Below, in pieces: positions 2,594 through 30,479 of a stretch of DNA of 36,164 nt. A program made the position numbers and the translations under genes. Below the pieces are notes generated by a model. It was not told where the DNA came from and ran no database searches. It was given only the letters and a program-made list of their open reading frames with translations. Origin of the DNA: Macrostomum lignano (Eukaryota); assembly GCA_002269645.1 (NCBI GenBank), contig NIVC01004750.1, positions 1-36,164 on the forward strand. Direction: 5' to 3'. Positions within the stretch are counted from its first letter, which is position 1; each line of letters starts with the position of its first letter.

Positions 2594-3449
2594 AGAGATC
2601 ACACCATAGAGATCACACCATAGAGATCACACCATAGAGATCACACCATAGAGATCACACCATAGAGATCACATCATAGAGATCACACCATAGAGATCAC
2701 ACCATAGAGATCACACCATAGAGATCACACTGATTACACCATAGAGATCACACTGATTACACCATAGAGATCACACCATAGAGATCACACCATAGAGACC
2801 ACACCACAGAGATCACACCATTGAGATCACACCATAGAGATCGCACCATAGAGATTACACCATAGCGATCACATCATGGACATCACACCATATGGATCAC
2901 ACCGTAGAGATCACACTGATTACACCATATGGATCACACCGTAGAGATCACACTGATTACACCATATGGATCACACCGTAGAGATCACACTGATTACACC
3001 ATAGAGATCACACCATAGAGATCACACCATAGAGATCACACTGATTACACCATAGAGATCACACCATAGAGATCACACCATAGAGATCACACCATAGAGA
3101 TCACACCATAGAGATCACACCATAGAGATCACACCACAGAGATCACACCATAGAGATCACACCATAGAGATCACACCACAGAGATCACACCATAGAGATC
3201 ACACCACAGAGATCACACCATAGAGATCACACCACAGAGATCACACCATAGAGATCACACCACAGAGATCACACCATAGAGATCACACCACAGAGATCAC
3301 ACCATAGAGATCACACCACAGAGATCACACCATAGAGATCACACCACAGAGATCACACCATAGAGATCACACCACAGAGATCACACCATAGAGATCACAC
3401 CACAGAGATCACACCATAGAGATCACACCACAGAGATCACACCATAGAG
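2594..3449. repeat. 14-bp intronic minisatellite (CATAGAGATCACAC)n
   Basis: Directly visible tandem repeat with CAC/CAT variants and occasional TGATTACAC insertions. Confidence 0.97.
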
Positions 3450-3508
3450 AAAACGCCGTGAAGATTCCATCGCAGAACTCCAACCAGTATCCCATGATCG
3501 CATTGCAG

Positions 3509-3697
3509 TCCCAGTCGGTTTGGGTCACAGCTCTGGTTTGCGCCCATCTCAGCCACAGTCTCAAAGCTCAGCAGAGTCAGTGGGAGCTGATGGTCCAGAA
3601 GGCCATGGACTTCGTGAAGGCGGCCTGTCCAGACGCTGACGCGGTGCTGGCCGCTGCTAACTCAATGCTGCAGGCGAGGGTTGCCAGCAGCATGTAG
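3509..3697 (+). CDS. VWA5A: Terminal exon of the VWA5A-like gene
   Basis: Acceptor ttgcag|tcc at 3508/3509 is phase 0 like the 2320 donor. Encodes SQSVWVTALVCAHL...QWELMVQKAMDFV, resembling the VWA5A C-terminal WAT..A...WEL...KA motif. TAG at 3695-3697. Confidence 0.7.
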   Translation, partial: SQSVWVTALVCAHLSHSLKAQQSQWELMVQKAMDFVKAACPDADAVLAAANSMLQARVASSM

Positions 3698-3929: not shown

Positions 3930-4364
3930 ATTTTTATTATTATTCAAGTCTAATTTTGCACTGATAAACCAGCTGTTTAGATGTCGAACAAACTTTGATT
4001 GTAAATTTAAACATGTACATCTTATCGAACGATATTGACTCATGGATCCTAACAAATCATAGCAATGATGCGCGTTCACACTACTGAAAAGTTTTTTATG
4101 TCGCGGATTTTTTTCACTGCTGTGTTGGACTGCATGGCTGTTTGGCCTGTTTGGCTTTGGCTTTGGCTTTGGCTTAGCCTGTTTGGCTTTGTTCTATATT
4201 TTTACTCAGACTCTGGTGTACGCCATAGGCACGCACATTGCCCAACCTAGGCCTAGAGCGCTTTGGACCCAAACAGTTTTTATATCCAGGTACGCTGTAA
4301 TTTTACATTATAGCTGCACCATGTTTGGCTCTCAATTTTGTGCTTGCTATTTTTTAAACAATAC

Positions 4365-5197
4365 TGTGATGATGGGGCTCAAGGGCTCGGTCCTTTCGTG
4401 CCCCTTTCCCAGACCCGGGTTCGTGTACTGACCCTGGCTGCGGTCCTCCACTGACACGCGTACGACGCGGTGTCCGTCGGGACTAGGCTGCTCGAGCGTA
4501 CGACGCACGACAGCCTACAGACTCGCGTACGACGCAGAGCTGCTTGGGGTGGGACCGGCGTACGACGCACTTAATCCCTCTAAGGTGCCTAGTACAGATG
4601 CAGACCCAAATGACGTACAAATTGGAAGGCTTACCAGCCGCGATTTCAGTCGTACAAGAAACAGAGCCGTCAGAGCAGTGGTGATCTCGATATTCTTTAC
4701 TTATATATTTGTCTAGCAATTCTGCGAGGAATAGCAATTCAGCAACCAACGCTGGCACAATCGCCGAGGAGCCACGAAGACGACGAGAATGGGGTCTCAA
4801 GGGGCCGAATAAATAGGCAGCAAACTGGGGGTCGAGGGCGCGGGATAAAGGCAGAAAAGGGGGCTTAGACATCAGCCAAGGCAACGCATGAGCTGTACCA
4901 GCCAATCGCCGGGGCGCAGCACGGCAGACTGGGACTGGCAGCCAATCACAAACAGGGGCGGGGCAGCAAAGCTAACAAAATAATGGGGCGGGGTCGCACA
5001 GGGGGGGGGGGGTCGCACGCAGAGCATGGGGGGGTTGACTCAACAGAAAAGGTCTAGGCAGGGAGGGGAGGGGTACGCACGCGCAGAAGTGCAGGTGGGT
5101 GAGTCAGAAAATATCTAAGGAGGGGGAGAGGACGGCCGACTGGCCCGGCGTAGCAAAGTAGCAAAGTACACACAGTCATAATAACACATTCATGACA
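4365..5197 (-). repeat. 3' LTR (833 bp)
   Basis: On the minus strand it starts TGTCATGA and ends TCATCACA (7/8 imperfect terminal inverted repeat, TG...CA). It is immediately preceded by a purine-rich tract and matches 12224-13057. Confidence 0.9.
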
Positions 5198-5209
5198 CTC
5201 CCGTCCCCT
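5198..5209 (-). other. Polypurine tract (AGGGGACGGGAG)
   Basis: Purine-rich 12-mer directly abutting the TG start of the 3' LTR on the minus strand. Confidence 0.85.
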
Positions 5210-5771
5210 AGACAAAAGTTCGAGTTCGAAAAGTCGAATATTGAAATGATGCTACTATAACAAAAAAATTGAACAGAGGAACAAACCGCATTTGAAAAAT
5301 ATTTTGGACTCGCATGGCAACTAGTTCGAACAAAAAACAAAACCGCAGTGATTATACCGTTTAAAAATGACGAAGAAACCTTCAAACATAGGATAGTGAG
5401 TACGCATCATTGGGAAGCAAAACGCAAATTTTGGGAAAAACTCACTTTAACAAAAACGCTGAAGTTCGAAAAAAACGCTAAATGTTCACAAAAAACAAAA
5501 AAATGAAACCGTCAAACATTTACCCTCACAAGTAATACTAGCACTGCTTCCCTGCATCCCGCCGAGTACGGCCGTCGCTCTGGTGCCTCGTCTCCCTGTC
5601 GCTACTGTCGCCGGTTGCTCTGGTCGCTCTGCGCTGGTCGTCGAGTCCTGCGGTTGCTGCACAGCCGCATCGCTCCGTCAGCACCCGTTAAGGCCGGTCC
5701 ACCTCCGCTCCGCTGTCCCTGGGTCTGCACTGCAAAGTCCCTAGCCCCAAAGTCCCTAGGAAGACATAGCC

Positions 5772-6758
5772 TCAGTCAGAGCACGAATCCCACAGCCTAC
5801 GGAGGGCACCCAGGACCAAACCCTGGCGTCGCAGGTCGAACAGCGGGAACACCACCATCACCGACATGTAGACAGCTTGACACGCTTGGCGACTCCACCG
5901 ACGAACTCCGTGCCCCGGATACTTGCGACCGTCTCGCTCCAAGTAGCCCAGGATTTGCAGCATCAACTCCGGACCGAATTCCTTGAAATCCACCAAGGCA
6001 GTGGCGCACTTCCCCTTCAGGGCTAGCAGCACCTCAAAGATGCCCCACGGGTCGCCCTTCCGCATTGCCTGGTGCAGTTTCTTCCGACTGGGTCCTACGT
6101 TCTCCAGTTCCGCGACGGTCACTGGTCGGCACGGTCTTGTCTGAAGCCGGTACGCTCTCTGCAGATATTCTTCAATCAGGTTTCTACATCCGGCACAATC
6201 TTCCTCCGCTTCCCATGACGTCTCAAGCTCCTCTACACCGGCCCACTGCAGCAGATACTCCGCTCCTCGCTCCGTGACTCGTACTCCTAAGACCTTCTCG
6301 ACCTCGTACTCCTCCGGCAGTGTCTCACTCGCCTCGTTCATCTCTTCGTCCTGCTCATCGTCTGAGGCCTCCTCACTTGCCTCCATCTTGACGTGCTCCT
6401 CATCCCTCCTCGCCTGTTCTCTCTCGTACGCCTCCTCAGCTAATCGGTCGCTCTCTTGTAGTCTTTCTATCTCTTCTCGGAGATCGTCGGGCATGTCTTC
6501 ATCCTCTAACATCCCTTCTGCGAGCCGAAGCATCTCATCCCGGTCACGAACAGCATTTCCAAAGATATCGTACAGCTTTCTAAGGAACGGACACGACAGT
6601 ATTCGGTACGCCTCTTCGCACTCCTGGAATCTCTTCCGCGTCTCCTCTGTTGCGCTCTTGTCAGGGTGCAGTTCGCGTGCTCGACCGTAGAACGCTTTCC
6701 GAATCTGTGCCGCAGACGCCCACAGCTGCACTCCAAGACACTCGTAGAGGTCCGCCAT
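5772..6758 (-). CDS. Retrotransposon accessory ORF3: J-domain (DnaJ/Hsp40) + acidic linker + chromodomain + unknown C-terminal region, 328 aa
   Basis: aa 3-67 DLYECLGV...IRKAF...LHPDK...FQECEEAYRILS...RKLYDIFG is a canonical J-domain (HPD at 6668-6660). aa 150-198 EYEVEKVLGVR...EYLLQWAG...TSWEAEEDCAGCRNLIEEY is a chromodomain. Own ATG, with an in-frame stop a few codons upstream. Confidence 0.92.
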   Translation of the reverse strand: MADLYECLGVQLWASAAQIRKAFYGRARELHPDKSATEETRKRFQECEEAYRILSCPFLRKLYDIFGNAVRDRDEMLRLAEGMLEDEDMPDDLREEIERLQESDRLAEEAYEREQARRDEEHVKMEASEEASDDEQDEEMNEASETLPEEYEVEKVLGVRVTERGAEYLLQWAGVEELETSWEAEEDCAGCRNLIEEYLQRAYRLQTRPCRPVTVAELENVGPSRKKLHQAMRKGDPWGIFEVLLALKGKCATALVDFKEFGPELMLQILGYLERDGRKYPGHGVRRWSRQACQAVYMSVMVVFPLFDLRRQGLVLGALRRLWDSCSD

Positions 6759-6759
6759 C

Positions 6760-7260
6760 TGTAACAGTCCGGCCTAACTCCGATGAGCAATGAGACACGC
6801 ACGACATGTACCTCCCTTCCCCCTTGGCTATCCAAGCGCCGTACACCGGACCCTTCTTCAGTAGTGTACACCGGGACCCCAAACCGATCTGGCGGTCGCC
6901 GCAGACGTCTTGGTCGCCCTGCTTCCTCCTGTGCCGTCCTCACTTCCTGCTCGGGTACGTTGGCGTCGTTCGGCTCTGCCTCATCCTCTTCGTCCTGCTC
7001 CTCGTCGTACCGCGCCTCATCGTCGTGCTCTTCTTCGTCATCGTCTGCTTCTCGACGCTCAGGTCCGGGCTCACAGTCTTCGGCCAGATTTCGGGTGTCC
7101 GGTGGAGCGTGATCTCTTGGATCTTGAAACCGCAGCTGAAGATCTTCAAACTCTTCATCTTCCTGCTCGGATTCCTGGTCCTGCGGCCCTCGCGCTGCGG
7201 TCCACCTCTGGGTCTCGCCCCGTTGCACTCTCTGCCTTCGGCTTCGTCCAGCAGCGGAAT
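6760..7260 (-). CDS. pol: Probable acidic, low-complexity C-terminal tail of Pol/integrase (frame broken)
   Basis: The frame of ORF 6506-7423 gives QESEQEDEEFED...DDDEEEHDDEARYDEEQDEEDE and RPRRLRRPPDRFG, a motif typical of Gypsy integrase tails. The connection to integrase needs indel correction. Confidence 0.5.
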
Positions 7261-7568
7261 TACACGTCGCGGCCTGGTTTTTCCCGAACTGGCCCTCCCA
7301 ATTTCCTCTCTGTCTCTTGACCGTCTGCCGCCTCCGTCTGAACCTGAACCGGCCGGAGATTGTTGAAGTGCACCACCTTGGTCTTCTGCGGCTGTGTCGG
7401 ATCCTGCACTCGATACAACGCATCTGACAGCTTCTCCAGGACCTTCACTGGGCCGCGCCAGTTGATATGGAACTTGCTTTTCTCTCCCATCTCCAAGCAC
7501 GGATAGTACAGCAAGACAGAGTCGCCCTTCTGAATCGCTTTGCCCTTCACTTTCCGATCGTAATTCAT
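7260..7568 (-). CDS. pol: Integrase C-terminal part with GPY/F-like motif
   Basis: YDRKVK...GDSVLLY...KFHINWRGPVKVLEKLSDALYRV...VVHFNNLRP. Confidence 0.85.
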   Translation of the reverse strand: MNYDRKVKGKAIQKGDSVLLYYPCLEMGEKSKFHINWRGPVKVLEKLSDALYRVQDPTQPQKTKVVHFNNLRPVQVQTEAADGQETERKLGGPVREKPGRDV

Positions 7569-7999
7569 TTTCTGCCGTCGCTGAACCGTCTCGCGTCCTT
7601 CTCGAATGCGTTCATGGGCATGAAGCAGGTTCTGCTGATCTCTTGCACAAACAAGGGATAGCTGTCCGTCTTTCGCCTAAGGTCCTCTGGTTCGAATCCC
7701 AGTGGCATCTCCTGACCATGCAGCATGTAGTAGGGCGTGTAACCGGTGGACGCCTGGACCGTCGATCGATAAGCCATCAATGCACTTGGCAGGTACTCCT
7801 CCCAGGCGTTCTGACCCTTCTGTACCAGATACGTGCGCAAACTGTTCTTCAGGAACCCATTAAATCGTTCCACCTGTCCGTTGCCACTCGGGTGGTAGGC
7901 GCTCGTCCTGGTCTTCTTCACACCCAACAGCTCGCACAGCTTCCTGACGATCCCCGACTCAAAGTTCCTTCCTTGGTCTGAGTGAAGTACCCGGGGCAC
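7565..7999 (-). CDS. pol: Integrase catalytic core (second D and E of DDE)
   Basis: PRVLHSDQGRNFES...TSAYHPSGNGQVERFN...WEEYLPSALMAYRSTVQASTGYTPY. Confidence 0.93.
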   Translation of the reverse strand: MPRVLHSDQGRNFESGIVRKLCELLGVKKTRTSAYHPSGNGQVERFNGFLKNSLRTYLVQKGQNAWEEYLPSALMAYRSTVQASTGYTPYYMLHGQEMPLGFEPEDLRRKTDSYPLFVQEISRTCFMPMNAFEKDARRFSDGRK

Positions 8000-10041
8000 C
8001 CGTGATTGGCAATCCAGCGTTCGAATAGCACCCTTGCGATCGTTGCCGCCTTCTGGTTCCGGATGGCATAAGCGTCAGGCCACTTTGAGAACGCATCTTG
8101 CACCGTGAGGATGTAGAAGTTTCCTTTCTTGCTCCGTGGCAGCGGCCCGATGACGTCCGTCATCACGATATCGAATGGGCTTGAACTCGGAATCGGCTCC
8201 ATCGGTGCAATTGGTTTCTTGCCAGCTTTGGCCTTGGTGCAGTCCAAACAGGCTTTTACGTGCTCTTCGACCTCGCGGCCAAGTCCCGGCCTCCAAAACG
8301 ATTGCCGCACCTTCTCCTTGGTCTTGAAAATCCCAACGTGCCCTCCACTCCGTCCACCATGAGCTTCTTCCAGCACCGCTCTCAGCATATTCCGTGGCAA
8401 CACCACTTGCGGCTGACGTCTACTGGCCGTATGACACAGCAACACCTCACTGTCCGACACCTCAAGGTCACGACGTCTTTCGACAATCCTCCTTGCCGTC
8501 GGTGATATGCGCCGCAAATGCTCTTCGGTTATCTCTCCGTCGCTGTGAGCCAGCAGCTCCATCGCCTGACGAATGTCGCTGTCCATCTTCTGGCTCTCTC
8601 TGATCTCCTCCGAGGTCCACTTCTGCAATCCCAACGCGTTCACGCCGATCTGCTCTTGTGCACATCCAGGACAACTCTCGCTTCCTTGATGGCGCCGACG
8701 TGGCTTCCTGGAGAGAGCGTCCGCGTGTTGATGTTTCACTCCCGGACGATGTTCGATGCGATACCTGTACGGAGCCAAGAGTTCCAGCCATCTGGCCAGT
8801 TGTCCTTCTACGTCCCGCAGCGAATGCAGCCACTTCAAGCTGCTGTGATCGGTGCGCACTAGAAACTCTCGCCCCATCAGGTAATAACGAAACTTCTGTA
8901 CGAAAAACACCACGGCCAGCAACTCGACTCGTGTCGTGCAGTAATTCCGTTCTTCTCGCGACAACGTCCTGCTTCCGTAAGCTATTACCTTCTCACTCCC
9001 ATCTTTCTGCACCTGCGAAAGCACAGCGCCAATTCCTTCTTTTGTGCTACCGTCTGTGTCTAAAACGAATTCTCCAGCGTCCTCCGCAAAGTTTGGAAAC
9101 GCCATGACCTCAGATCCCTGCAACCTTTCCTTCAGGGCCTCGAATGCGGCTTGACACTCCTCATCCCAGCTCCACGGGCAATCATGTCGGGTCCGTCGCA
9201 GCATCGGCTCAGCAATGCGGGAAAAATCTGCGATGAATTGCCGGTAATACCCGCACAGTCCCAGGAATGACCTTACTTCCTTCACATTCCTCGGAGTTGG
9301 CCAGTCACGAATTTCGGCAATCTTTTCTGGACTCGTGGCGATCCCATCAGCTGACACTACGTGTCCCAGGAAGGTCACTGACTTCAGCAGGAATGCGCAC
9401 TTCTTCGGCTTCAGTTTGATGTTCGCTGCTCGCAACCGTCGAAAAACCGTTTGCAACCGTTCCAGGTGCTCTTCTACCGTTCGTGACCACACTAGCAGGT
9501 CGTCCAGATACACCAAACACGTCTTCCAGCACAACTTCCCCAACACCACATTCATTAGCCGGCTGAATGAAGCCGGTGCATTTGTCAATCCAAATGGCAT
9601 AACGTTCCAGGCGTACTGCTGTACCCGGTGTGAAACGCCAAAGGCCGTCTTCAGTCTGTCGCTGGGTTCCACCGCCATCTGCCAGTATCCCGACTGCATG
9701 TCCATGGTCGAAAAAATCTTGGCACCGCCTAGGCTCTCCAACAGGTCATCTGTCCTGGGCAACGGCACTGCATCCTTCTTGGTCACTTCATTCAGTTTCC
9801 GGTAGTCACAACAGAACCTCAGGGAACCGTCCTTCTTTTTCACGCACACCACCGGAGAGCACCATGGGGACTGAACCTCGCTGATTCTCCCAGCTTCCAG
9901 CAAGTCATCCAACTCCTTGTCCACTTCCTGCCGCAGGTAAGGGGAATCCGCCTCGCCGCCTCTTTCACAGGCCTGGCATCTCCAGTGTCGATCTCGTGCT
10001 TCATCACCGTCGTACGCCGAGATCCTTGGAGTCCTTAGCAA
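7918..10041 (-). CDS. pol: Reverse transcriptase, RNase H and integrase N-terminus (HHCC and first D)
   Basis: SPWCSPVVCVKKKDGSLRFCCDYRKLN, MPFGLTNAP, YLDD, RNase H FVLDTDGS...IGAVLSQ...YCTTRVELLAVV, zinc finger H(GGRSGG)H...CLDC, DIVMTDVIGP. Confidence 0.97.
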   Translation of the reverse strand: MLRTPRISAYDGDEARDRHWRCQACERGGEADSPYLRQEVDKELDDLLEAGRISEVQSPWCSPVVCVKKKDGSLRFCCDYRKLNEVTKKDAVPLPRTDDLLESLGGAKIFSTMDMQSGYWQMAVEPSDRLKTAFGVSHRVQQYAWNVMPFGLTNAPASFSRLMNVVLGKLCWKTCLVYLDDLLVWSRTVEEHLERLQTVFRRLRAANIKLKPKKCAFLLKSVTFLGHVVSADGIATSPEKIAEIRDWPTPRNVKEVRSFLGLCGYYRQFIADFSRIAEPMLRRTRHDCPWSWDEECQAAFEALKERLQGSEVMAFPNFAEDAGEFVLDTDGSTKEGIGAVLSQVQKDGSEKVIAYGSRTLSREERNYCTTRVELLAVVFFVQKFRYYLMGREFLVRTDHSSLKWLHSLRDVEGQLARWLELLAPYRYRIEHRPGVKHQHADALSRKPRRRHQGSESCPGCAQEQIGVNALGLQKWTSEEIRESQKMDSDIRQAMELLAHSDGEITEEHLRRISPTARRIVERRRDLEVSDSEVLLCHTASRRQPQVVLPRNMLRAVLEEAHGGRSGGHVGIFKTKEKVRQSFWRPGLGREVEEHVKACLDCTKAKAGKKPIAPMEPIPSSSPFDIVMTDVIGPLPRSKKGNFYILTVQDAFSKWPDAYAIRNQKAATIARVLFERWIANHGCPGYFTQTKEGTLSRGSSGSCASCWV

Positions 10042-10900
10042 AGACAGCCCGATGTTGGGAAATCAGCTCCCTGAAGTCGGCTTCCTCCTCCTCCGACAGG
10101 CCACACGAACCCCACTCGCGGAATTCTTCGATCGGGTCCCATGCCTCCGCTTCATTCTTGGCCTCTACGTCGTCGTCCAAGCGCACCACGTTGATACCTC
10201 CGTTCGGTTCCAAAGGAATAAACCAGCCAATCGTCTCTCCTTTCTTGACCCTCTTCCTACAACTGGACGTATTCAGCAATCTCATCGGCAGCCGTCCATC
10301 CACGCCGGGCGCTACCAGAGCTCGAGCCAGCGCCAAATCCTTCTCAGCGGCCTTCACCGGCTTTTCTTCCGTTATGCCGACCGATCCGCAGTTTCTTGCG
10401 CCCTTTTTCTCTACCCTGGCTGGCATGATCACTTCTTGCGCCGGTTCCAGAAATACCGTTGTCTCGGCTTTGATTCGACACACCACGGGCAGCTCGCCTT
10501 TCTGCCGTATCGGAACTCTAACATCGCCCACTCGAAAGACAAACTCTGAATAGTTGATGACGCAACGATGCTGTTTGAAAAATTCGGACCCGAGAATGAC
10601 ATCATAACGTAATCCGTCCACTACGAAGAAATTCGCTGACCACCGCTCGCCGCCAATCTCCACGTCCAGCACAATGCAGCCTCTCATCCTCATCGCACCT
10701 CCATTGGCCGTTGAAAGGGAACCGTCCATTGCAGTCAGTCTCTCCCTCACCTCTTGCGGCAGCCTCAGGAAAACATCACAGCTCAGCACTGACACACTCG
10801 CACCACTGTCTAACAGCAGAGCCACTGGCTTGCCGGAAACCGCACCGGAAATAAAAACTGTCAGAGGCTCCGTTGATACCGACGAACACGCCTCATGAAC
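10004..10900 (-). CDS. pol: Retroviral-type aspartic protease and linker to RT
   Basis: VFISGAVSGKPVALLLDSGASVSV active site (DSG) and YDVILGSEFF flap motif. Confidence 0.92.
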   Translation of the reverse strand, partial: VHEACSSVSTEPLTVFISGAVSGKPVALLLDSGASVSVLSCDVFLRLPQEVRERLTAMDGSLSTANGGAMRMRGCIVLDVEIGGERWSANFFVVDGLRYDVILGSEFFKQHRCVINYSEFVFRVGDVRVPIRQKGELPVVCRIKAETTVFLEPAQEVIMPARVEKKGARNCGSVGITEEKPVKAAEKDLALARALVAPGVDGRLPMRLLNTSSCRKRVKKGETIGWFIPLEPNGGINVVRLDDDVEAKNEAEAWDPIEEFREWGSCGLSEEEEADFRELISQHRAVFAKDSKDLGVRR

Positions 10901-10990
10901 CAGGTTGCTCTTTGAATTCCATCACCAGAGACGCACTTGGATTTATTTACAGGTTAGTGAGCAACCCCGGTTCCTCGCTCCTGGGAGACT

Positions 10991-12115
10991 TCACTTCCTG
11001 GCAGGGTCCCGACTCTCCCCGGTCGGTCCCCTCGGCCCGTTTCCCGACTTCGGACACTTGAAGGATAGGTGGCCTTCACCGTTGCACTTGTGACATCGTA
11101 CTGGCGATTTCCCGTTTTCACTCTTCTGACTGGTCTTCTTCGGACACTTTGATGAGATATGGCCCCACTCTCGACACGAAAAACACTGCACAGCCTTCCG
11201 ACTCGCCGGGGTCGGCTCTGCCGCTTCTTCAGACCTCCGCTCCTCCATCTCTTTCATTCGCATCTCCATGGCCGCCAGCTGTTTTCGAAGCATCTCGACC
11301 TCACTGCTTTCGGAAGCCTCCTTTCTGGTCTCGGTCGTAACAGCACAAACGGTTCTTTTCGATACCTGACCTGGTGGACCATGACTTGCCCTAACCGCCG
11401 CTTCCAGCTGATGCACCAGACGCATTGCGTCCGCTAACGTCTCCGGCTGGCTCATGTACAGTCGCTCCCGCACAGCCACCCCCGCACGGACGCCTCGCAT
11501 AAATCGCTCTTTCGCAAGATCATCGCGCACATCGGCAGGCGCATCAGGAAAGGCGTTTGCGACCAACTCAATCACAGCTTCAGAGAAATCTTCTACCGAC
11601 TCCTTCTCACTCTGCTCTCTATTGCTCAGTTCTGTGCGGTAGTCGACGACGGTACGGTGCATAGTGAACCTATCCCTCAAGGCCTGGGTAAATTCTTCGA
11701 ACTGCAAGTCGTCCCCAAGGTTCATGTTGTCAACAACTTGGAAGGTGCTGAAGTCTAGGTTGCTGAGCAACTGAGCGCGCCGATTCTGCATCGGAATCTG
11801 CATGGCATCGCAATAAGCTACGAAGAGCCTCAACCACTTCACGAAATTCATTCCTGGAGCATACTTCACCGGCCTCTGAATCCTGAGGGCACCCGCTTGC
11901 TGCATGTTCTGCTGAATCTGGGCAGTCAAGGCGGCGACCAGATCATTAACACCAAAGGCTCCAGCAGCACCTCCAGCAGCACCTCCAGCCGCACCTCCAG
12001 CCGCACCTCCAGCCGCACCTCCAGCCGCACCTCCAGCCGCACCTCCAGCCGCACCTCCAGCCGCACCTCCAGCCGCACCTCCAGCAGCACCTCCAGCAGC
12101 ACCTCCAGCATCCAT
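10991..12115 (-). CDS. gag: Gag, 374 aa, with N-terminal (GGAA)12 repeat and two CCHC zinc knuckles
   Basis: First ORF after the PBS. Contains a capsid-like helical region (REQSEKESVEDF...ELVANAFP...KERFMRG), CFSCREWGHISSKC and CHKCNGEGHLSFKC. Confidence 0.93.
   Translation of the reverse strand: MDAGGAAGGAAGGAAGGAAGGAAGGAAGGAAGGAAGGAAGGAAGGAAGGAAGAFGVNDLVAALTAQIQQNMQQAGALRIQRPVKYAPGMNFVKWLRLFVAYCDAMQIPMQNRRAQLLSNLDFSTFQVVDNMNLGDDLQFEEFTQALRDRFTMHRTVVDYRTELSNREQSEKESVEDFSEAVIELVANAFPDAPADVRDDLAKERFMRGVRAGVAVRERLYMSQPETLADAMRLVHQLEAAVRASHGPPGQVSKRTVCAVTTETRKEASESSEVEMLRKQLAAMEMRMKEMEERRSEEAAEPTPASRKAVQCFSCREWGHISSKCPKKTSQKSENGKSPVRCHKCNGEGHLSFKCPKSGNGPRGPTGESRDPARK
11039..11045 (-). promoter_or_regulatory. 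Candidate -1 ribosomal frameshift heptamer G-GGA-AAC
   Basis: X-XXY-YYZ in the correct gag phase (tcG GGA AAC), 16 codons before the gag stop, followed by GC-rich sequence able to pair (CCGAC/GTCGG). Confidence 0.65.
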
Positions 12116-12202: not shown

Positions 12203-12220
12203 GTCCCACCAAGGATGCCA
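12203..12220 (-). other. Primer-binding site TGGCATCCTTGGTGGGAC
   Basis: Starts with TGG 3 nt after the 5' LTR end and is complementary to a tRNA-like 3' end GUCCCACCAAGGAUG-CCA. Confidence 0.85.
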
Positions 12221-12223
12221 ATT

Positions 12224-13057
12224 TGTGATGATGGGGCTCAAGGGCTCGGTCCTTTCGTGCCCCTTTCCCAGACCCGGGTTCGTGTACTGACCCTGGCTGC
12301 GGTCCTCCACTGACACGCGTACGACGCGGTGTCCGTCGGGACTAGGCTGCTCGAGCGTACGACGCACGACAGCCTACAGACTCGCGTACGACGCAGAGCT
12401 GCTTGGGGTGGGACCGGCGTACGACGCACTTAATCCCTCTAAGGTGCCTAGTACAGATGCAGACCCAAATGACGTACAAATTGGAAGGCTTACCAGCCGC
12501 GATTTCAGTCGTACAAGAAACAGCGCCGTCAGAGCAGTGGTGATCTCGATATTCTTTACTTATATATTTGTCTAGCAATTCTGCGAGGAATAGCAATTCA
12601 GCAACCAACGCTGGCACAATCGCCGAGGAGCCACGAAGACGACGAGAATGGGGTCTCACGGGGCTCTGAATAAATAGGCAGCAAACTGGGGGTTGAGGGC
12701 GCGGGATAAAGGCAGAAAAGGGGGCTTAGACATCAGCCAAGGCAACGCATGAGCTGTACCAGCCAATCGCCGGGGCGCAGCACGGCAGACTGGGACTGGC
12801 AGCCAATCACAAACAGGGGCGGGGCAGCAAAGCTAACAAAATAATGGGGCGGGGTCGCACAGGGGGGGGGTCGCACGCAGAGCATGGGGGGGGTTTGACT
12901 CAACAGAAAAGGTCTAGGCAGGGAGGGGAGGGGTACGCACGCGCAGAAGTGCAGGTGGGTGAGTCAGAAAATATCTAAGGAGGGGGAGAGGACGGCCGAC
13001 TGGCCCGGCGTAGCAAAGTAGCAAAGTACACACAGTCATAATAACACATTCATGACA
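12224..13057 (-). repeat. 5' LTR (834 bp)
   Basis: Near-identical to 4365-5197, with the same TG...CA termini, and followed by the PBS. Confidence 0.9.
12559..12854 (-). promoter_or_regulatory. Candidate LTR U3 promoter: TATA, two CCAAT boxes, two GC boxes
   Basis: TATATAAG on the minus strand at 12566-12559, CCAAT at 12763 and 12803, GGGGCGGGG at 12816 and 12846. Motif evidence only. Confidence 0.5.
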
Positions 13058-13563
13058 CTCCCGTCCCCTAGACAAAAGTTCGAGTTCGAAAAGTCGAATA
13101 TTGAAATGATGCTACTATAACAAAAAAATTGAACAGAGGAACAAACCGCATTTGAAAAATATTTTGGACTCGCATGGCAACTAGTTCGAACAAAAAACAA
13201 AACCGCAGTGATTATACCGTTTAAAAATGACGAAGAAACCTTCAAACATAGGATAGTGAGTACGCATCATTGGGAAGCAAAACGCAAATTTTGGGAAAAA
13301 CTCACTTTAACAAAAACGCTGAAGTTCGAAAAAAACGCTAAATGTTCACAAAAAACAAAAAAATGAAACCGTCAAACATTTACCCTCACAAGTAATACTA
13401 GCACTGCTTCCCTGCATCCCGCCGAGTACGGCCGTCGCTCTGGTGCCTCGTCTCCCTGTCGCTACTGTCGCCGGTTGCTCTGGTCGCTCTGCGCTGGTCG
13501 TCGAGTCCTGCGGTTGCTGCACAGCCGCATCGCTCCGTCAGCACCCGTTAAGGCCGGTCCACC
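13058..13563 (-). mobile_element. Second PPT and 3' untranslated internal segment of a truncated tandem copy of the same element
   Basis: Sequence matches 5198-5703 (PPT plus AT-rich and GC-rich 3' UTR) and stops abruptly at 13563. Confidence 0.85.
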
Positions 13564-13967: not shown

Positions 13968-14185
13968 TCTGGGAGGGTGGCCGAGGCCCCGCCTGGAGAT
14001 CTGGGAGGGTGACGGTAGAGCTTGGGGATCTGGGAGGGTGACGGTAGAGCTTGGGGATCTGGGAGGGTGACGGTAGAGCTTGGGATCTGGGAGGGTGACG
14101 GTAGAGCTTGGGATCTGGGAGGATGACGGTAGAGCTTGGGGATCTGGGAGGGTGACGGTAGAGCCTGGGGATCTGGGAGGGTGGT
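13968..14185. repeat. 28-29-bp minisatellite (GATCTGGGAGGGTGACGGTAGAGCTTGGG)
   Basis: About 6-7 visible tandem copies. Confidence 0.92.
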
Positions 14186-15729
14186 GGCGGTCAAGCAACA
14201 AACGATCTGGAAGGTGTCTGGTAGGTAAAAGGTATCACAGACACCTTTAACTTGCGTTAACGCTACAAGAAGTGGGCTCTAGTCGCACAGAGCAGGAAAT
14301 TTAATTTAGCTTCTGTTTGCCATTTTTGCAAGCATCAGTAGCAGCCCTCAAACCCAGCCAGGTAGAAAAACGCAACTGAGAAATCATCTTGTTGAGCAGG
14401 TGAGTTTGATGAGCGACCAAACACTCTGGGGGGGGGGGGAGGCAGTGATGCAGGGGAAGAGACAGACAGACTACAACTGAAGCCAATCCCGGTAGTGATT
14501 ATTGGCAGTCATTAAATGGGATTTAGCAATAGGGATGATTTTTTTGGGGGGGGAGGCTGGTGGAGCTGTCAGCAGCAGGCAGGGCTTCCTACCAAGGCCA
14601 ACCTGTTTGAATAATTGAGTCTCACAAGGGCAGCTGCGGGGCAAATCGCAATTAGAGTTCTGTTATTATCATGATTATGATTATTATTGTTGATGGAGGA
14701 GGCGACCACTTGACGTCCGCGGCCTACCTGTCACGCGCTTGTCATTCAAGGCCGGAGCTGAGAGAGAGAGAAAAAAACTACCTTTAGGGTAGTGGGCTGG
14801 TGCAGGGGTTGCTCTGAGAGAGCCTCACCTGTAGGATTTTGGACTGATGATGCTGCTGCAGCTCATCCCAGCTGACTCAATTGGAAAGTTGGCTATTTTT
14901 TTCATAATCAGCAGCACTTATCACAGTCAAAGAATGATAGCTGTAGGGGCATGGGCACACTGCCCTCCCCCATGGCTTTAAGAGCCAGAAAAGCTTTGCA
15001 AAAAAGCAATTGCAAGCAAAACTCCCTCCAGAAACGTCAATGGCAAGGAGGGTGGGCTGCAGTGGCGATTGCAGCTGTCCTCTATCAGGACTAGAAACCA
15101 GCTTAATAGATATCATTTTTGTAGCGAGCCTGTTCAATGCATTCATTGATTAAATTGTCCACCACACGGCTGTCATTAAATGAGTAACTACTGAGCAATG
15201 CCTTCCTTACTCAGTCTGGCCAACTTTTTTACAACTCTTCATACAACAACCCCCCTCCCCCGACTTCATGCAGCTATAATCCTTCCACCCCAAAGAAATG
15301 TCTGTTGAGCAATAATCAAAATTTTCTAAATTTTGCCCAATTTATTCCTTCCGTCGAGCACCTTCGGTCCAATAACCTCTTGACTCCGGAGAGGTTGGAA
15401 CTCTGTCTCAGAGGTCTGGCTTTTTCTGAAATATTGTCAAGTGAAATCTTGCCCAATAATGATTGAGTTATATTGTTGAGCCTGGCGATCAGTGAAGGTT
15501 GTCGAGCACTATTTATTCTCCAGACAGATGACACTGATGAGGCCTGATGTAATCATCACGAAACCTTTCTAGGAAACCGCTATCTACTAATTTGCTTATC
15601 TACTTCTCTCTCCACCCTGTCTACCTGTGTCTACCTCTAAAAATTTGCTTTTGTCTACCTTGTCTGATTACTGACTACTTCTTTGCTTACCTATCAAAAC
15701 TTCCTGTTTAGCAAACTCAAACCTCTCTA

Positions 15730-16095
15730 CCCTGACTACTTTTATGTCTACCCTAGCTACTTCTATATCTACCCTAACTACTTCCATGCCTACTCTAACT
15801 ACTTCTATGTCTACCCTAGCTAGTTCATTATCTACCCTAACTTCTATGTCTATCCTAGGTGCTCCCATGTCTACTCTAACTACTTCTATGTCTACCCTAG
15901 CTACTTCAATATCTACCCTAACTTCTATGTCTACCCTAGCTACTTCAATATCTACCCTAACTTCTATGTCTACCCTAGCTACTTCAATATCTACCCTAAC
16001 TTCTATGTCTATCCTAGGTGCTCCCATGTCTACTCTAACTACTTCTATGTCTACCCTAGCTACTTCGATGCCTACCCCAAATAATTTTCTACCTA
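15730..16095. repeat. 18/21-bp minisatellite (TGTCTACCCTAGCTACTTCTA-like)
   Basis: Visible degenerate tandem repeat. Confidence 0.9.
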
Positions 16096-16559
16096 TCCGA
16101 GACTGTTTTCTATGTCCACTCCTCAACTCTAAATTTCCTTTATTTACTATTCTGTCTGTCCTGCTTGTTGCATCCATATACTAAAAATGGTCTGCCGGTA
16201 GGTGTCTATCTATCTATTATCTTTAAACCTCTTTTCTCCCTCTTTTTCTTCTGTCGGTTGCCATTCACTTTAAGCATCGACAATTTCACATTTCAAGCGC
16301 GTCATCATTCTCCATTACGATTCCATTGTTGTAATGAAAATCAAATTAGAAAGCTGCATGCAATATCAGATATAATAATGAACAGCATTCAAGTTTGCAA
16401 ATGACAAATAAACAATTTTTTTTTGTTTATTGAATTCGAAGGCAAGCATCACTTTACAAAAAATGTTTAATGCAGATAAGTAAAAGTTTGCTTTTGGCAA
16501 TGCGGACAAACATTTAGGAAAATGCCCTTGAGTAAGAAATGGATGCATGTTAGGCGGAG

Positions 16560-17460
16560 ATAGAGAAGTAGATAGTTGGGGAAGAGAAGTAGACAGTGGG
16601 AGGGAGAGTAGACAGAGTGGGAAGAAAAGTAGACTGAGGGGAGAGAGAAGTAGACTGAGGGGAGAGAGAAGTAGACAGTAGGGAGAGAGAAGTAGACAGA
16701 AGGGAGAGAGAAATAGACAGTGGGGAGAGAGAAGTAGACAGTGGGGTAGAGAAGTAGACAGTGGGGAGAGAGAAGTAGACAGTGGGGTAGAGAAGTAGAC
16801 AGTGGGGAGAGAGAAGTAGACAGTGGAGGAGACAGAGAAGTAGACAGTGGGGAGAGAGAAGTAGACAGTGAGGAGAGAGAAATAGACAGTGGAGGAGAAA
16901 GAGAAGTAGACAGTGGGGAGAGAGAAGTAGACAGTGAGGAGAGAGAAATAGACAGTGGAGGAGAAAGAGAAGTAGACAGTGGGGAGAGAGAAGTAGACAG
17001 TGGGGGAGAGAAGTAGACAGTGGGGAGAGAAATAGACAGTGGAGGAGACAGAGAAGTAGACAGTGGGGAGAGAGAAGTAGACAGTGAGGAGAGAGAAATA
17101 GACAGTGGAGGAGAAAGAGAAGTAGACAGTGGGAGAGAGAAGTAGACAGTGGGGGAGAGAAGTAGACAGTGGGGGAGAGAGTAGACAGTGTGGAGAGAGA
17201 GAAGTAGACAGTGGAGGAGAAAAAGAAGTAGACAGTGGGGAGAGAGTAGACAGTGGGAGAGAGAGAAGTAGACAGTGGAGGAGAAAGAGAATTAGACAGT
17301 GAGGAGAGAGAAGTAGACAGTGGAGGAGAAAGAGAATTAGACAGTGGGGAGAGAGAAGTAGACAGTGGGGGAGAGAGTAGACAGTGTGGAGAGAGAGAAG
17401 TAGACAGTGGAGGAGAAAAAGAAGTAGACAGTGGGGAGAGAGAAGTAGACAGTGGAGGAG
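16560..17460. repeat. About 21-bp purine-rich minisatellite (GTAGACAGTGGGGAGAGAGAA)
   Basis: Visible tandem repeat. Confidence 0.95.
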
Positions 17461-18809
17461 TCGATATCGATAAAGTCAGAGTCAGTACTCAACACGCTCA
17501 AGAATCTGCGCCATCAAGCAGCAGCCGGTCAGTCTCGTCCAACAGTCTGGCCAATGAGCTGCCGCGTCGGTCAAGGCAGGCCCGAGCCTGAGCTGCCAGG
17601 CCTTCAGCGTCCACCGCCGATCGAAGTTCCTTCCTCCGCCTGAGCAGTCTGCAACAATAAAAGCAACAAAAACTGCAGAGAGCGAAAAAGAGAGGCACCA
17701 GAAAGTGCAAAAAAGAAGCACTAGACAGTCAGTTTAACTCCCGGGGCTTCTCTCAATTAATTCGTTCGGCGGGATTCCGGTCGGTGCGGTGACAAGTTAA
17801 TACTCGATGGTGGTTTCGGATTATTATAGATTGGTTAAGCGCTGCCGAGCGCAACACAGTGGGGAGAGGGCAGATGAGCTCAAATGATTGAGAAATCGAA
17901 GCTGAGCCAGCAGCATCAGCAGCTGCAGTTTGCCACATAATTGCCACCCTCTCTGTCCCCTCCCAACCCCAAATTGAACCCCAGCAGCCACCGAGCGCCT
18001 GTGTCCCGTCCTGTCTGCCCCGCATGTGTAAATATATGAACCCCCCGCCGGAATTAAATCATTTCCTGCACTCGTCATTACCTCATTAAACAGCAGCCGC
18101 AGCAGCAGCAGCGCAATCGGTCTGGGGGGGGCTTCGGCTGTAGGGGGGGGGGGGGGAAAGTCACTGGAGATCCCGGCCAGTGTCAGATTTCTCTCTCCCC
18201 TACTCGGCCAGGCGAGCTGGCGGCCGGCGACGGGACCTCGCGATGTCGGAGTCCCGCCATCTAATTCAATCAGTGAAAACCTGACAGAGGGACTGCCCGA
18301 CCGGCAAATCCCAGAGGATCGGCGGTGGGGGGGGGAGGAGAGTCCGGGGAGTGTCAGATGCTGCTGGGGCTCAAATCTCTCTGCCCCAGCCTCTTCGTCA
18401 GAAGCTTCTCGCGGACCCGCCGCTCTGCTGCTGTTGCCAGATTTTCAGCTCCTGCCTTTCCCGCCAATTTCTGGAGACTCTTCTCGGGAAAGCAGAAAAA
18501 ACACACAGACACACAGAGATACAGGAAGAGACAGCATTTAATTAAACTGGATCGAGGGAGCGGAGATGTGCCAAAAGGAATGCGAAAACAGATTAAAGCG
18601 GCCGCCGGCTAGGATGGATGTAGCCAAGGGAAATCACTGGGACAGCTGGACTCTGGCCAGCTGAGGGTGGGCTGCATGGTCAGCTGCTGTTGAGAATTCG
18701 AGCTGAGGAAGATACCAAAACATGGCCGCAAAGGAATGGCTTGGATGGGGAGACAGGGAAATAACTGAAACTGCTGACAACTGGGCGCTGCCGACTGGAA
18801 AGGTGCGAC

Positions 18810-18903
18810 ATGCAGACAGGCAGACAAAAAAACAGACAGACAGACAGAGAGACAGACAGAGACAGACAGGCAGACAGACACGCAGACAGACAGATAGACA
18901 GAA

Positions 18904-18964
<61 letters not shown>

Positions 18965-19410
18965 GGCAGACAAAAAAAACAGACAGACAGACACACAGAC
19001 AGACGGACACTAACAGACAGGCAGACACTAACAGACAGGCAGACACTAACAGACAGGCAGACACTAACAGACAGGCAGACACTAACAGACAGGCAGACAC
19101 TAACAGACAGACAGACAGACACTAACAGACAGGCAGACACTAACAGACAGACAGACAGACACTAACAGACAGACAGACAGACACTAACAGACAGGCAGAC
19201 ACTAACAGACAGGCAGACACTAACAGACAGGCAGACACTAACAGACAGGCAGACACTAACAGACAGACAGACACTAAGACACAGGCAGACACTAACAGAC
19301 AGGCAGACACTAACAGACAGGCAGACACTAACAGACAGGCAGACACTAACAGACAGGCAGACACTAACAGACAGGCAGACACTAACAGACAGGCAGACAC
19401 TAAGACACAG
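18810..19410. repeat. (CAGA)n microsatellite grading into an 18-bp repeat (CAGACACTAACAGACAGG)
   Basis: Visible tandem repeat. Confidence 0.95.
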
Positions 19411-20279
19411 GCCAATAGAGACAGCTCAAAGCTTTGTTGTCAGCTGGCAATGAACAAGCGATTCCCCTCATTGAACGTTCAGCGCACAAAGAATTGGGAA
19501 CAATTTCCAAGCAGCAAGTTGACGTTATAAATCTATGGCTATAATCGTATACACAAGCAACCCCGAATTGATATATTAATGCGCCTTAATAAGACATAAA
19601 AACTCAGCACGGCCAGACAGAAGCGCTGGTGGCGGTGGTAGGCGGTGGTTGGGTCGGGTGATCAGCTTTAATTTAGCACCGGCGCCAACAATCCACCCAT
19701 GGGAGTTCGACAAGCTCCCAAGCAAAACCCGATGCCAATTATCAGATAAAGACTAAAGGGTTGGCGACCCCTTGCTTCCTTCTGTCAACTGGCCACCCCA
19801 ACCCCTTGGCCAGTCCCCCCCGAAGGCTCGAATAGAAATCGACATTGGGGCGAGTCACCAAGGCCAGTGGACTTGAAGAGCTAGATCATGCATAATATCA
19901 TTATTGTATACGATTTAGATCTTGCTGTAAGATCACTTGTTGAGACTACTGCTATTTAGAGCTTGCCAATAATAATAAAAACCATATAGGGTTGCTCATA
20001 AATTTGGGGGAAATTTTTTTAGAGAATTCCCTGGGGCTAATCGGAGCCGAAGAAATTCGATGGCCGATGGCCTAAATTGTTTTTATCTCGTAAATAGCCA
20101 TTGAAACACTCGTTTCCAATCTTCTGCTTCTAGAAGGAGGACCCTCCAGGAGGCGCAAAATAGATCCGCGTCACGCAGGCTAACTACGCGGGCGCGGTTT
20201 GGGCCGTTTTATTCTTGTCACCGCAGCCATGCTTTTGTAGGCGATTTTGGGCTCTGTAGCTGACCGCCTGCCCGCGTCT

Positions 20280-22822: not shown

Positions 22823-23714
22823 AGCTGTCCATTCTCATTTGCAGCCGCAAACGTCTCAGCAAATTTTTCATGGTTCTACAGGCAGACACAGCGCCTTAAA
22901 CACAGGTGCCGAAAGTGTCGTTCTATTGTATGTATAGTTACGAGTATATATACGAGTAGGCCTCGACAACATAACGAGAAGACTTCTAAGACTTCTACTA
23001 TCAATATTCAAGCAGGCATTTAGGCTATTTTAATGGATACAGTAGCTATCGAATCACATAACAGGCGTCCCATCTGGGATGTCAAGGTGTGGGTTTTATT
23101 AGGTTAGGTGAAAAATCAGAAATAAGCGCAGACACACACACAGCTAGACAGCAGACGCTGCAGCAAGATACCCTGAAGAGCTCTAAGAGACGCCGGTCCA
23201 AGCCATCTGGTTGATGAGACGCCGGCAGTCAGTCCCGGAAGGCCTTAGCGACACTTTCAAGCGATAACACTTCAACACGATCACCCGAGAAGGAGGCGAT
23301 AGAACAATAATAAAAAATACTTCAACACGGCAGCCAGGAGACCCTCTTGTTCTCTTTTCTATAAGTTTTCGAGCGGAGAATTACAGAATTGAAGTGGCGT
23401 TTCAGTTATCCGCAACCACCAAACTAACCCACTTGAAGGCCGACTTGTAACCCCGGCTAATATATACAGTGGCGCATATATTACACAGACTGCTCTTGGC
23501 TTCTGTAGCAACTGAGCATAAGGCCAATTCAACTCATAGAGTGAGCATGCAGCCATTGTGTTTGTCTGCCTGCTGCCATTGATTCCTATTGATACAAATT
23601 ATATGAAATTATCATTCTGCTTCGTATTGCGACTTGAAAAATAACTTAACTAATTATGACCAGAATATATTGACAGTTCCCATGATTGACAGGGCAGCGA
23701 GATTGGCTTCTCAG

Positions 23715-24555
23715 CCTCTACCTCTCCCTGCCTCTCTCCCTGCATCTCTTCCTCTCTCCCTGCATCTCTTCCTCTCCCGCTGCATCTCTTCCTCTCCCTG
23801 CATCTCTGCCTCTCTCCCTGCATCTTCCTCTCTCCATGCATCTCTTCCACTCTGCCTGCATCTCTTCCTCTCTCCCTGCATCTCTTCCTCTCTCCCTGCA
23901 TCTCTTCCTCTCTCCCTGCATCTCTTCCTCTCTCCCTGCATCTCTTCCTCTCTCCCTGCATCTCTTCCTCTCTCCTTGCATCTCTTCTCTCTCCCTGCAT
24001 CTTTTCCCCTCTCCCTGCATCTCCGCCTCTCTACCTGCATCTCTGCCTCTCTCCCTGCATCTCCGTCTCTCTCCTTGCATCTCTTCCACTCTGCCTGCAT
24101 CTCTCCCTCTCTCCCTGCATCTCTGCTTCTCTCCCTGCATCTCTTCCTCTCTCCCTGCATATCTCCTCTCTCCCTTCATCTCTGCTTCTCTCCCTGCATC
24201 TTCCTCTCTCCCTGCATCTCTGCCTCTCTCCCTGCATCTCTGCCTCTCTCCCTGCATCTCTTCCTCTCTCCCTGTATCTCTTCCACTCTGCCTGCATCTC
24301 TGCCTCTCTCCTTGCATCTCTTCCACTCTGCCTGCATCTCTTCCTCTCTCCCTGCATCTCTGCCTCTCTCCTTGCATCTCTGCCTCTCCCTGCATCTCTG
24401 CCTCTCTCCCTGCATCTCTGCCTCTCTCCCTGCATCTCTGCCTCTCTTCTTGCATCTCTTCCACTCTGCCTGCATCTCTGCCTCTCTCCCTGCATCTCTG
24501 CCTCTCTCCTTGCATCTCTTCCACTCTGCCTGCATCTCTGCCTCTCTCCCTTTCT
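23715..24555. repeat. About 20-bp pyrimidine-rich minisatellite (CTGCATCTCTTCCTCTCTCC)
   Basis: Visible tandem array. Confidence 0.95.
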
Positions 24556-29664: not shown

Positions 29665-29758
29665 GCAACAGCAAGCAAAACAAAACACAGATTAAGAAAG
29701 ATTTAGGACTCTAAAAAGCAGCAACAGCAAGCCGTGATCAGATTGCGCAATGCAATTC

Positions 29759-29876
29759 TCAATAGCTGAAGAATCCCTCCGATCCCAGCAGTGCCGCCAG
29801 CTCAAGTATGAAATTAAGCGAGCAACAAGTGGCCGCAAAGAGAGCACAGGTGCCTTCCGAGCTATTCGGTTTGAGG
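29759..29876 (-). CDS. RPAP2: RPAP2 probable terminal exon 6
   Basis: Acceptor ctctcttag|c is phase-compatible with the exon 5 donor; open for 38 codons to TGA at 29761-29759. Weak similarity support. Confidence 0.55.
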
Positions 29877-30477: not shown

Positions 30478-30479
30478 GA

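Follow-up and report, generated by a model that had tools for sequence, protein, structure and literature searches.

A J-domain accessory gene in a clade of Ty3/Gypsy retrotransposons from the flatworm Macrostomum lignano

Related systems and the place of the new gene

Non-env third open reading frames (ORFs) located after pol are described in long terminal repeat (LTR) elements of bdelloid rotifers, where the family-specific ORF3 encodes an enzyme (DEDDy exonuclease or GDSL esterase), is typically expressed from spliced messages and has been gained and lost across branches (PMC5408684, in the available text). Here we describe the ORF3 of a Ty3/Gypsy element of the flatworm Macrostomum lignano, which occupies the same place and encodes a predicted co-chaperone instead of an enzyme; the main text of PMC5408684 as available contains none of the words 'DnaJ', 'chaperone' and 'Hsp'. 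The element lies on the reverse strand of a 36,164-nucleotide stretch of DNA (contig NIVC01004750.1 of assembly GCA_002269645.1, hereafter the window), and its ORF3 contains, in this order, a J-domain, a helical extension, an acidic linker, a chromodomain and a C-terminal five-helix domain. ORF3 is best explained as an old accessory gene of one flatworm Ty3/Gypsy clade. The J-domain accessory gene in a retrotransposon appears to be new, whereas non-env third ORFs and chromodomains as polyprotein accessories are known.

In chromoviruses a chromodomain is likewise encoded just 3' of the integrase core, but it is fused to the integrase C-terminus, whereas here it begins 150 residues into a separately started ORF, is flanked by the J-domain and another domain, and is restricted to one lineage. 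The Chromo profile has no match in the pol pieces scanned, and the reverse transcriptase (RT) is nearest to Gmr1/Osvaldo among two alignable references, neither of which is a chromovirus. By the criterion of integrase fusion the element is not a chromovirus. The initial annotation placed the ORF in the env position, and correctly so: it follows integrase, precedes the polypurine tract (PPT) and represents a genuine third ORF of a Gypsy family. ORF3 is nevertheless not an env gene: the position fits but the layout of a membrane glycoprotein does not, the protein starting directly with the J-domain and ending in a compact predicted helical bundle (as judged from domain layout rather than from a membrane predictor).

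Polyomavirus T antigens combine an N-terminal, HPD-bearing J-domain with an acidic docking region, and use Hsp70 to disassemble a nuclear complex. ORF3 resembles them in its J-domain and acidic layout, so that they may serve as a model of how it works, but it has no helicase and shows no sign of shared ancestry with them beyond the generic J fold. The T-antigen analogy of the initial annotation breaks down at the LxCxE motif, which is absent in all five ORF3 proteins tested. To our knowledge, few animal transposons encode proteins that act on host silencing.

Three further systems are comparable in part, as far as their available descriptions go. CERV of the C. elegans element Cer1 is an LTR-element accessory protein made from spliced RNA; its nuclear location is shown, whereas that of ORF3 is predicted, and it serves the export of genomic RNA, with no J-domain, SUMO-interacting motif (SIM) or chromodomain named in the description on which the comparison is based (PMC10309623). 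The Arabidopsis J-protein SILENZIO acts in transposon silencing, where it binds HSP70 and is brought to chromatin by the mark readers MBD5 and MBD6; it is a host repressor with separate readers, whereas ORF3 is element-encoded, joins reader and J-domain in one chain and would act with the opposite sign (PMC8616336). VANC21 of VANDAL21 is a transposon-encoded silencing suppressor, as ORF3 might be, but it comes from a DNA transposon and targets DNA methylation (PMC8616336).

Ty3/Mdg4 families of M. lignano were described by Ustyantsev et al. 2025 (PMC12801592) with domain strings that, in the available text, list only protease (PR), RT, RNase H (RH) and integrase (IN), and GAG. Its main text has no 'DnaJ', 'chromo' or 'ORF', the 'DnaJ' matches seen in the supplement are confined to a gene-expression table, and the window family was not matched to any Mlig-id given there. 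In agreement with the initial annotation, which knew of no such architecture, no J-domain ORF in a retrotransposon was found in the literature searched, Repbase, Dfam, GyDB and one earlier classification paper lying outside that search. A 'DnaJ domain' match for Chlamydomonas was rejected, as it refers to host gene names and not to an element ORF.

Distribution, domains and conservation of ORF3

ORF3 is a stable component of a Ty3/Gypsy family that has moved recently. In the genome assembly (G000) we identified 138 ORF3 matches, 17 of them spanning the full length without stops at 98% identity or more; such counts overstate the number of insertions, because the species is a hidden allotetraploid and its assembly is redundant (PMC12801592, available text). 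All 29 own-family loci align to the element DNA around ORF3, and the flanks are distinct in 15 of the 18 loci with a readable LTR end. ORF3 lies downstream on the same strand in 24 of 29 RT matches (identity of at least 88%, window family and sister family), a linkage that the initial annotation had left to be checked. The best host (non-element) chromodomains are 31-38% identical to that of ORF3, and other J-domain matches reach at most 50% identity and span the J-domain only. A single-copy ORF or a recent host capture is ruled out by the 17 full-length copies and the lack of a close host parent.

The window frame encodes an intact 328-aa protein (P0001) in the gag-pol sense between integrase and PPT, and both families expected from the initial reading, DnaJ and Chromo, match above their Pfam cut-offs (Table 1), so that the complete J-domain, the acidic linker and the chromodomain stand as first described. 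The HPD motif (residues 31-33, positions 6660-6668) is located in the loop between J-domain helices II and III, and the predicted structure of the J-domain is a helical J fold (predicted local distance difference test score, pLDDT, of ~90) that superimposes on the Ydj1 J-domain with a root-mean-square deviation (rmsd) of 1.0 Å over 64 columns. In the helical extension (pLDDT 77-91), G67, A80 and P90 are near-invariant among 11 sequences. The nearest solved structures to the chromodomain are those of Swi6, CBX5, CBX1 and HP1. Residues 132-222 of the full-length model fall below pLDDT 50, which we do not hold against the chromodomain because only two of the five alignment rows had one.

The C-terminal domain, overlooked in the initial annotation, is common to all ORF3 lineages (~110 aa) and is modeled with a pLDDT of 88 and a predicted template-modeling score (pTM) of 0.79. 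A Foldseek search against PDB and BFVD gave nothing at E<=0.001, the best structural match (VIA, Z 8.6, rmsd 3.0 Å over 100 residues) is at chance level for helical bundles, the sequence matches in PDB are designed helical proteins, and a sequence-family scan of 12 members produced one weak match below the cut-off. The domain is thus assigned to no family or fold by these sequence and model comparisons, which is no proof of a new fold.

Outside the window family, at least five other lineages encode a J-domain and the C-terminal domain in the same place without a chromodomain. Three of them (L031, L032 and L033) are 26-36% identical to P0001 and each combine gag and pol with a J-domain ORF of 293-327 aa in the same sense, with 21 full-length matches at 99% or more for L031 and 14 for L032. 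All of 15 further short loci match the ORF3 profile, and pol is present within the fetched stretch in nine of them and not in six. The J-domain, the helical extension and the C-terminal domain are common to the ORF3 proteins, open ORF3 frames occur in four multi-copy families, and HPD is kept in 10 of 11 aligned J-domains. The chromodomain was found only in the window family, in P0002 and in a sister family known from defective copies (L034, L045, L046).

In a tree of 20 single RT-RH segments, 17 rows group together (81/87) in two branches (99/97 and 83/94); two Mag loci without an RT match are not included, and the basal nodes join long branches. The window RT-RH is 52% identical to a copy of Gmr1/Osvaldo Mlig-id38 vs 39% to two CsRN1 copies, on long branches of the tree, and the clade is probably among the 40 Gmr1/Osvaldo families of PMC12801592, as far as its available text allows comparison. 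Among eight RT neighbours picked for having no listed ORF3, one had ORF3, three had only a TatD-like domain, one was truncated and three had none.

In one branch a TatD-like domain extends ORF3 or is all that is left of it. The TatD profile matches L051 (32.5 bits) and L066 (32.1 bits) above the cut-off of 27, and L065 (23.1 bits) below it. Compared with the solved TatD structure 2gzx, L065 keeps the GE motif but is missing both later histidines and the ETD motif, which in TatD are among the catalytic and metal-binding residues; the same losses are seen by eye in L066. A literature search on TatD in LTR retrotransposons or Gypsy elements found no paper. Two RT relatives of this branch without a J-domain ORF have open frames of 207-247 codons in the ORF3 place (L053:906-1646, reverse strand; L055:3022-3642, forward strand), and the frame of L053, which was scanned, has no Pfam match.

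As judged from these alignments, the chromodomain is a swappable part and not the defining feature of ORF3, because only one of at least six ORF3 lineages has it while a SIM-like motif occurs elsewhere. SIMs consist of a hydrophobic followed by an acidic stretch, and such a motif (e.g. IVVISDDE) is present in 9 of 10 chromodomain-less linkers from five lineages, in none of the three chromodomain linkers and in one of eight acidic pol tails, its chance rate being 0.05-0.21 per shuffled linker. The sole chromodomain-less linker without the motif belongs to the HPD-less family. Instead of a SIM-like motif, the linkers of the window family and P0002 carry a site matching psi-K-x-E, the SUMO-acceptor consensus (VKME at residues 123-126 and VKQE in P0002). 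The J-domain plus chromodomain architecture proposed in the initial annotation thus holds for the window family, and not for the at least five other lineages, most of which have the SIM-like motif.

Codon comparisons indicate that ORF3 is under purifying selection at the level of pol, and the neutrality envisaged as a possible refutation in the initial annotation is not borne out. Between families, dN/dS ranges from 0.07 to 0.31 in 11 comparisons of ORF3 segments, which partly overlap and are not all independent, vs 0.15-0.23 in three pol controls. Three further ORF3 comparisons are saturated (pN 0.27-0.30, pS 0.75-0.87) and are not counted in that range; for the chromodomain, pN is 0.30 vs a pS of 0.70 over 57 codons. 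Within the family, 15 of the 17 full-length copies, which are related to each other, contain 23 synonymous and 9 non-synonymous variant codons, when 23% synonymous are expected.

ORF3 is also less tied to its own pol than linkage predicts, with mosaicism in two of three pairs. Between L031 and L041 the integrase DNA is 92% alike and ORF3 69% (dS 0.16 vs 1.1-1.4), and between the window and L034 the RT has a dS of 0.21 when the J part is saturated, whereas L033 and L039 have no such gap (0.08 vs 0.14). Template switching alone could be the source of this mosaicism.

ORF3 is probably made from an env-like spliced subgenomic RNA, as suggested by candidate acceptors near its start in a survey of 16 loci. 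YAG directly precedes the ATG in the window, L031, L033, L040 and L041; AG is one or two bases from the start in L034, L037, L045 and L046; and CAG lies ~16 bases upstream in L032 and 15 bases upstream in L042 and L043. L035, L036, L047 and L048 lack an ATG but have TG after the acceptor, so that splicing could generate a start codon. Twenty runs of seven studies, whose kind is uncertain, contain the stretch; no splice joint was seen over ORF3 in contigs of four runs, and since contigs drop rare forms this has no bearing on expression.

Relatives outside the genome are few in the protein sets searched. P0002 is 76% identical to P0001 over 287 aa, the two being the sole pair among 6,067 candidates in a 90%-clustered protein set. 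Among the best 150 matches listed by a phmmer search of 1.84 billion representatives there is one full-length relative, and an alignment-based search was dominated by ordinary DnaJ among the best 120 of 574 matches. None of 63 pattern matches in metagenome contigs and none of five in viral contigs are relatives, only close relatives being detectable in this way, and ESM Atlas had no usable ORF3 match. With a profile of the C-terminal domain, 3 of 8,000 scored proteins were found, P0001, P0002 and P0270, which is weak evidence. P0270 (L049:364-2499, reverse strand) is a 993-aa NCBI hypothetical protein of M. lignano, in which a deletion fuses RT-RH in frame to a J-domain without its first helix, and it could be mistaken for a natural RT-DnaJ fusion. 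It is the sole relative with the full domain that carries a species name, and in line with that name a pattern taken from a published M. lignano element recurs 33 times in G000, whereas its control has 0 occurrences.

Possible role of ORF3 and alternative explanations

J-domains with HPD activate Hsp70 on clients presented by neighbouring domains. Since the SIM-like motif and the chromodomain share one slot and both point at silent chromatin, ORF3 may bring Hsp70 there, and we tentatively propose, as the likeliest of several explanations, that it acts in the nucleus and in trans, recruiting Hsp70 to SUMO/H3K9me silencing complexes. It would consist of a constant core, the J-domain with its helical extension and the five-helix C-terminal domain, and of an exchangeable address between the core parts, a SIM-like motif in most lineages and an HP1-like chromodomain in the window lineage. 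The protein would enter the nucleus and, at element loci, dock on silencing chromatin marked by SUMO or H3K9 methylation, where HPD would drive host Hsp70 to loosen or evict the silencing complex and thereby help the production of element RNA. Both addresses may point to one pathway, because in Drosophila piRNA silencing SUMO-SIM docking recruits SetDB1/Wde and leads to H3K9me3 (bioRxiv 10.1101/533091, available part). Some relatives, including multi-copy ones, are without ORF3, and they could ride along because ORF3 would act in trans on host proteins.

Several observations weigh against such a role. The SIM rules were set after the motifs had been seen and the rows are related; under a stricter rule the motif is present in 7 of 10 chromodomain-less linkers, and the window family itself is without a SIM-like core. 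SIMs do not single out silencing, because they also serve integration, nuclear import and RNA export, and the part of SUMO in transposon silencing of the worm is borrowed by analogy from other animals. The methyl-lysine binding of the window chromodomain may be weak or absent because the third cage aromatic is missing: Y151, W172 and V175 correspond to Y, W and Y in Swi6, so that two of three aromatics remain, and the third position is L in P0002 and F in the sister family (cage F, W, F). Helix II of the window J-domain (R20, K21, R26 and R28 kept) appears less basic than that of sister lineages, some of which have R or K in place of Y24, G25 and E29. Hsp70 activation seems not to be required in every branch, because the HPD-less family (L065, 10 near-full-length matches) keeps an open frame of 558 aa. 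Finally, the most constant partner of the J-domain, the C-terminal domain, has no assigned function.

Another nuclear role would be that of an integration helper, a separate adaptor steering the pre-integration complex to SUMO-rich or heterochromatic sites, much like the integrase-fused chromodomains of chromoviruses, or using Hsp70 to disassemble the intasome after strand transfer. The presence of a chromodomain in ORF3 is in line with it, as LTR-element polyproteins are known to carry chromodomains as accessories (PMC6338049, available text), and the SIM and the basic loop of the C-terminal domain would suit a nuclear role. However, ORF3 diverges and is exchanged independently of integrase between sister elements, relatives without ORF3 exist, the five target-site duplications (TSDs) read have no common motif, and ~0.7 kb separate the window copy from the end of a host gene, all of which make this explanation rather unlikely. 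We consider it quite unlikely that ORF3 works like CERV (PMC10309623, available text), as the product of a spliced RNA that binds nascent genomic RNA at the loci of the element and, through Hsp70, releases it from complexes that retain or degrade it. This is suggested by the acceptor-like AG before the start across lineages, by the basic loop and by the motif-less TatD-like fold of one branch, which could bind nucleic acid, but an export factor is expected to be essential, which disagrees with the multi-copy relatives without ORF3, and no RNA-binding family was found for the C-terminal domain in the 12 members scanned. The two ideas, RNA export and release of silencing complexes, would overlap if retention is a part of silencing.

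Many viruses depend on Hsp70, and HPD is intact in most lineages, so that ORF3 might bring Hsp70 to Gag and Pol for cytoplasmic folding, assembly or uncoating of the particle. This is decidedly unlikely in our estimate: it leaves unexplained both the SIM/chromodomain alternation in one slot, which by inference would favour a nuclear role over capsid chaperoning, and the loss of ORF3 from relatives that share the gag-pol layout. A coupling of the element to the heat-shock response, e.g. by binding up Hsp70, has a parallel in other LTR families of the species that are heat-induced via heat-shock elements (HSEs) (PMC12801592, available text). Nevertheless, no HSE of the canonical pattern given there was found in the window and none at one mismatch in the 5' LTR region, Mlig-id38, a heat-induced Gmr1/Osvaldo family, has an LTR of ~340 bp that differs from this one, and the available table of heat-changed genes contains no PF00385 gene. 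Heat-shock coupling is thus very improbable in general and is rejected for the window family, which has no canonical HSE and an LTR unlike that of Mlig-id38. That ORF3 is passive cargo, a recently captured host gene without function, is hardly credible; some relatives have lost ORF3 and several old copies have decayed, but the purifying selection at the level of pol, the open frames in four multi-copy families and the lack of a close host parent largely refute it.

Recruitment of Hsp70 to SUMO/H3K9me chromatin, if it takes place, would give the element a direct route to undo heterochromatin. It is conceivable, though doubtful, that an animal retrotransposon clade evolved a modular Hsp70 co-chaperone as a counter-defence, in which the constant J-domain and helical domain are re-aimed by swapping a SIM, a chromodomain or a dead TatD domain, and the host chaperone strips piRNA/SUMO/H3K9me complexes in the manner of T antigens. 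ORF3 would then be an animal transposon-encoded silencing suppressor acting at the level of chromatin. The standing question of chaperones acting on transposon silencing at chromatin itself becomes testable here; the worm has transgenesis (PMC12801592, available text), and natural variants (SIM or chromodomain, HPD or none, TatD-like or none, ORF3 absent) can serve as controls. Under the other explanations, too, the accessory proteins encoded by ORF3 form a new family, one domain of which is unassigned.

Organization of the element and neighbouring sequences

The ORF3-bearing element has gag followed by pol in the order PR-RT-RH-IN, the Ty3/Gypsy plan by Pfam, and the open pol frame of L031 has the same order. 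Other hallmarks of Ty3/Gypsy elements were also found, namely LTRs bounded by TG...CA, a primer-binding site (PBS), a PPT and a short TSD, the latter from other copies.

Table 1. Coordinates of the element, its ORF3 domains and the TatD-like loci of related elements (window positions unless a locus is named)
Feature	Position	Strand	Description
5' LTR	12224..13057	-	834 bp, TG...CA; 827 of 830 aligned bases identical to 3' LTR
Primer-binding site	12203..12220	-	18-mer starting TGG, three bases internal to 5' LTR
gag	10991..12115	-	374 aa; two CCHC knuckles, N-terminal Gly/Ala repeat; Pfam zf-CCHC
pol	6870..10921 (lower end approximate)	-	PR-RT-RH-IN and acidic tail; several frame changes
Candidate splice acceptor CAG	6759..6761	-	Abuts ORF3 ATG
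ORF3 (P0001)	5772..6758	-	328 aa, ATG start, stop-free; gag/pol strand
J-domain	6567..6752	-	Residues 3-64; Pfam PF00226, E 4.7e-16, 59 bits, cut-off 27.8
Helical extension of J-domain	6450..6566	-	Residues 65-103; clade-specific
Acidic linker	6309..6449	-	Residues 104-150; no SIM-like core in window family
Chromodomain, HP1/Swi6-like	6156..6308	-	Residues 151-201; Pfam PF00385, E 1.4e-12, 47.7 bits, cut-off 25.1
C-terminal domain	5775..6098	-	Residues 221-328, 108 aa; five predicted helices and basic loop
3' untranslated region	5210..5771	-	From ORF3 stop to PPT
Polypurine tract	5198..5209	-	Purine run abutting TG of 3' LTR; similar in related families
3' LTR	4365..5197	-	833 bp
Extra 3' untranslated region and PPT copy	13058..13563	-	Outside 5' LTR; part of 1.34-kb direct repeat
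TatD-like locus	L065:1293-3005	-	
TatD-like locus	L066:775-1401	-	
TatD-like locus	L067:2-466	+	
TatD-like locus	L051:1124-1666	-	

Additional weak Pfam matches of gag are Retrotrans_gag and PNMA. In Pfam, pol matches RVT_1, RT_RNaseH, Integrase_H2C2 and rve, and weakly Asp_protease. The frame breaks in the window pol are probably assembly errors, because contigs of all four runs compared differ from the window there by one-base indels. Almost every pol tail closes with an acidic stretch and then, immediately upstream of ORF3, a motif of the R-x-x-P-x-R-(F/Y) type (window ~6870-6910; pol ends of L031-L034 and L051-L057). A 15-base part of the PBS occurs at 31 places in the genome assembly; its primer may be tRNA-Arg.

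A 1.34-kb direct repeat in the window is longer than the LTR alone and includes the stretch of the 3' untranslated region (UTR) with the PPT. The extra 3' UTR piece outside the 5' LTR, missing in all six other copies with a readable 5' end, may be left over from a tandem neighbour or have arisen by recombination. At its own LTR ends the window copy shows no TSD; of eight other copies tested, five have a 4-bp TSD, two are unreadable and one is without. The 3' UTR contains four TTCGAA-type dyads (13079-13330 and, in the other repeat copy, ~5219-5470) that are HSE-like but deviate from the canonical pattern.

Individual copies deviate from the common plan. ORF3 of L034 is split by ~650 AT-rich bases (~5620-6260) between the J part and the chromodomain part, by an intron or an insertion, and a similar spacing occurs in G000:C1935; the L034 copy is also missing most of RH and integrase. 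In L037 the start of ORF3 is found twice on the reverse strand (4218-4580 and 365-1240), 3.3 kb apart around one pol, as in a tandem or recombined copy. On contig G000:C3819 (~29200-31200; L018, L023) ORF3 is duplicated in inverted orientation over ~1.3 kb at 99.7%, which could be a source of hairpin RNA aimed at ORF3 or an assembly artefact. A 151-aa frame beside a truncated element (L050:997-1449, reverse strand) has no Pfam match, and we take it to resemble a Polinton/adintovirus minor capsid protein.

Long simple and tandem repeats in the window (2595-3450, 13990-14170 and 15600-33200) give rise to many spurious long ORFs, and in L031 tandem repeats also occur where gag meets pol and within the 3' UTR. 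Pieces of a host von Willebrand A-domain gene with frame changes are located on the forward strand at 1-2321 and ~3520-3696 (weak Pfam VWA_3, E 1.6e-4); the gene is presumably VWA5A-like, and the element lies ~0.7 kb past its apparent last exon.

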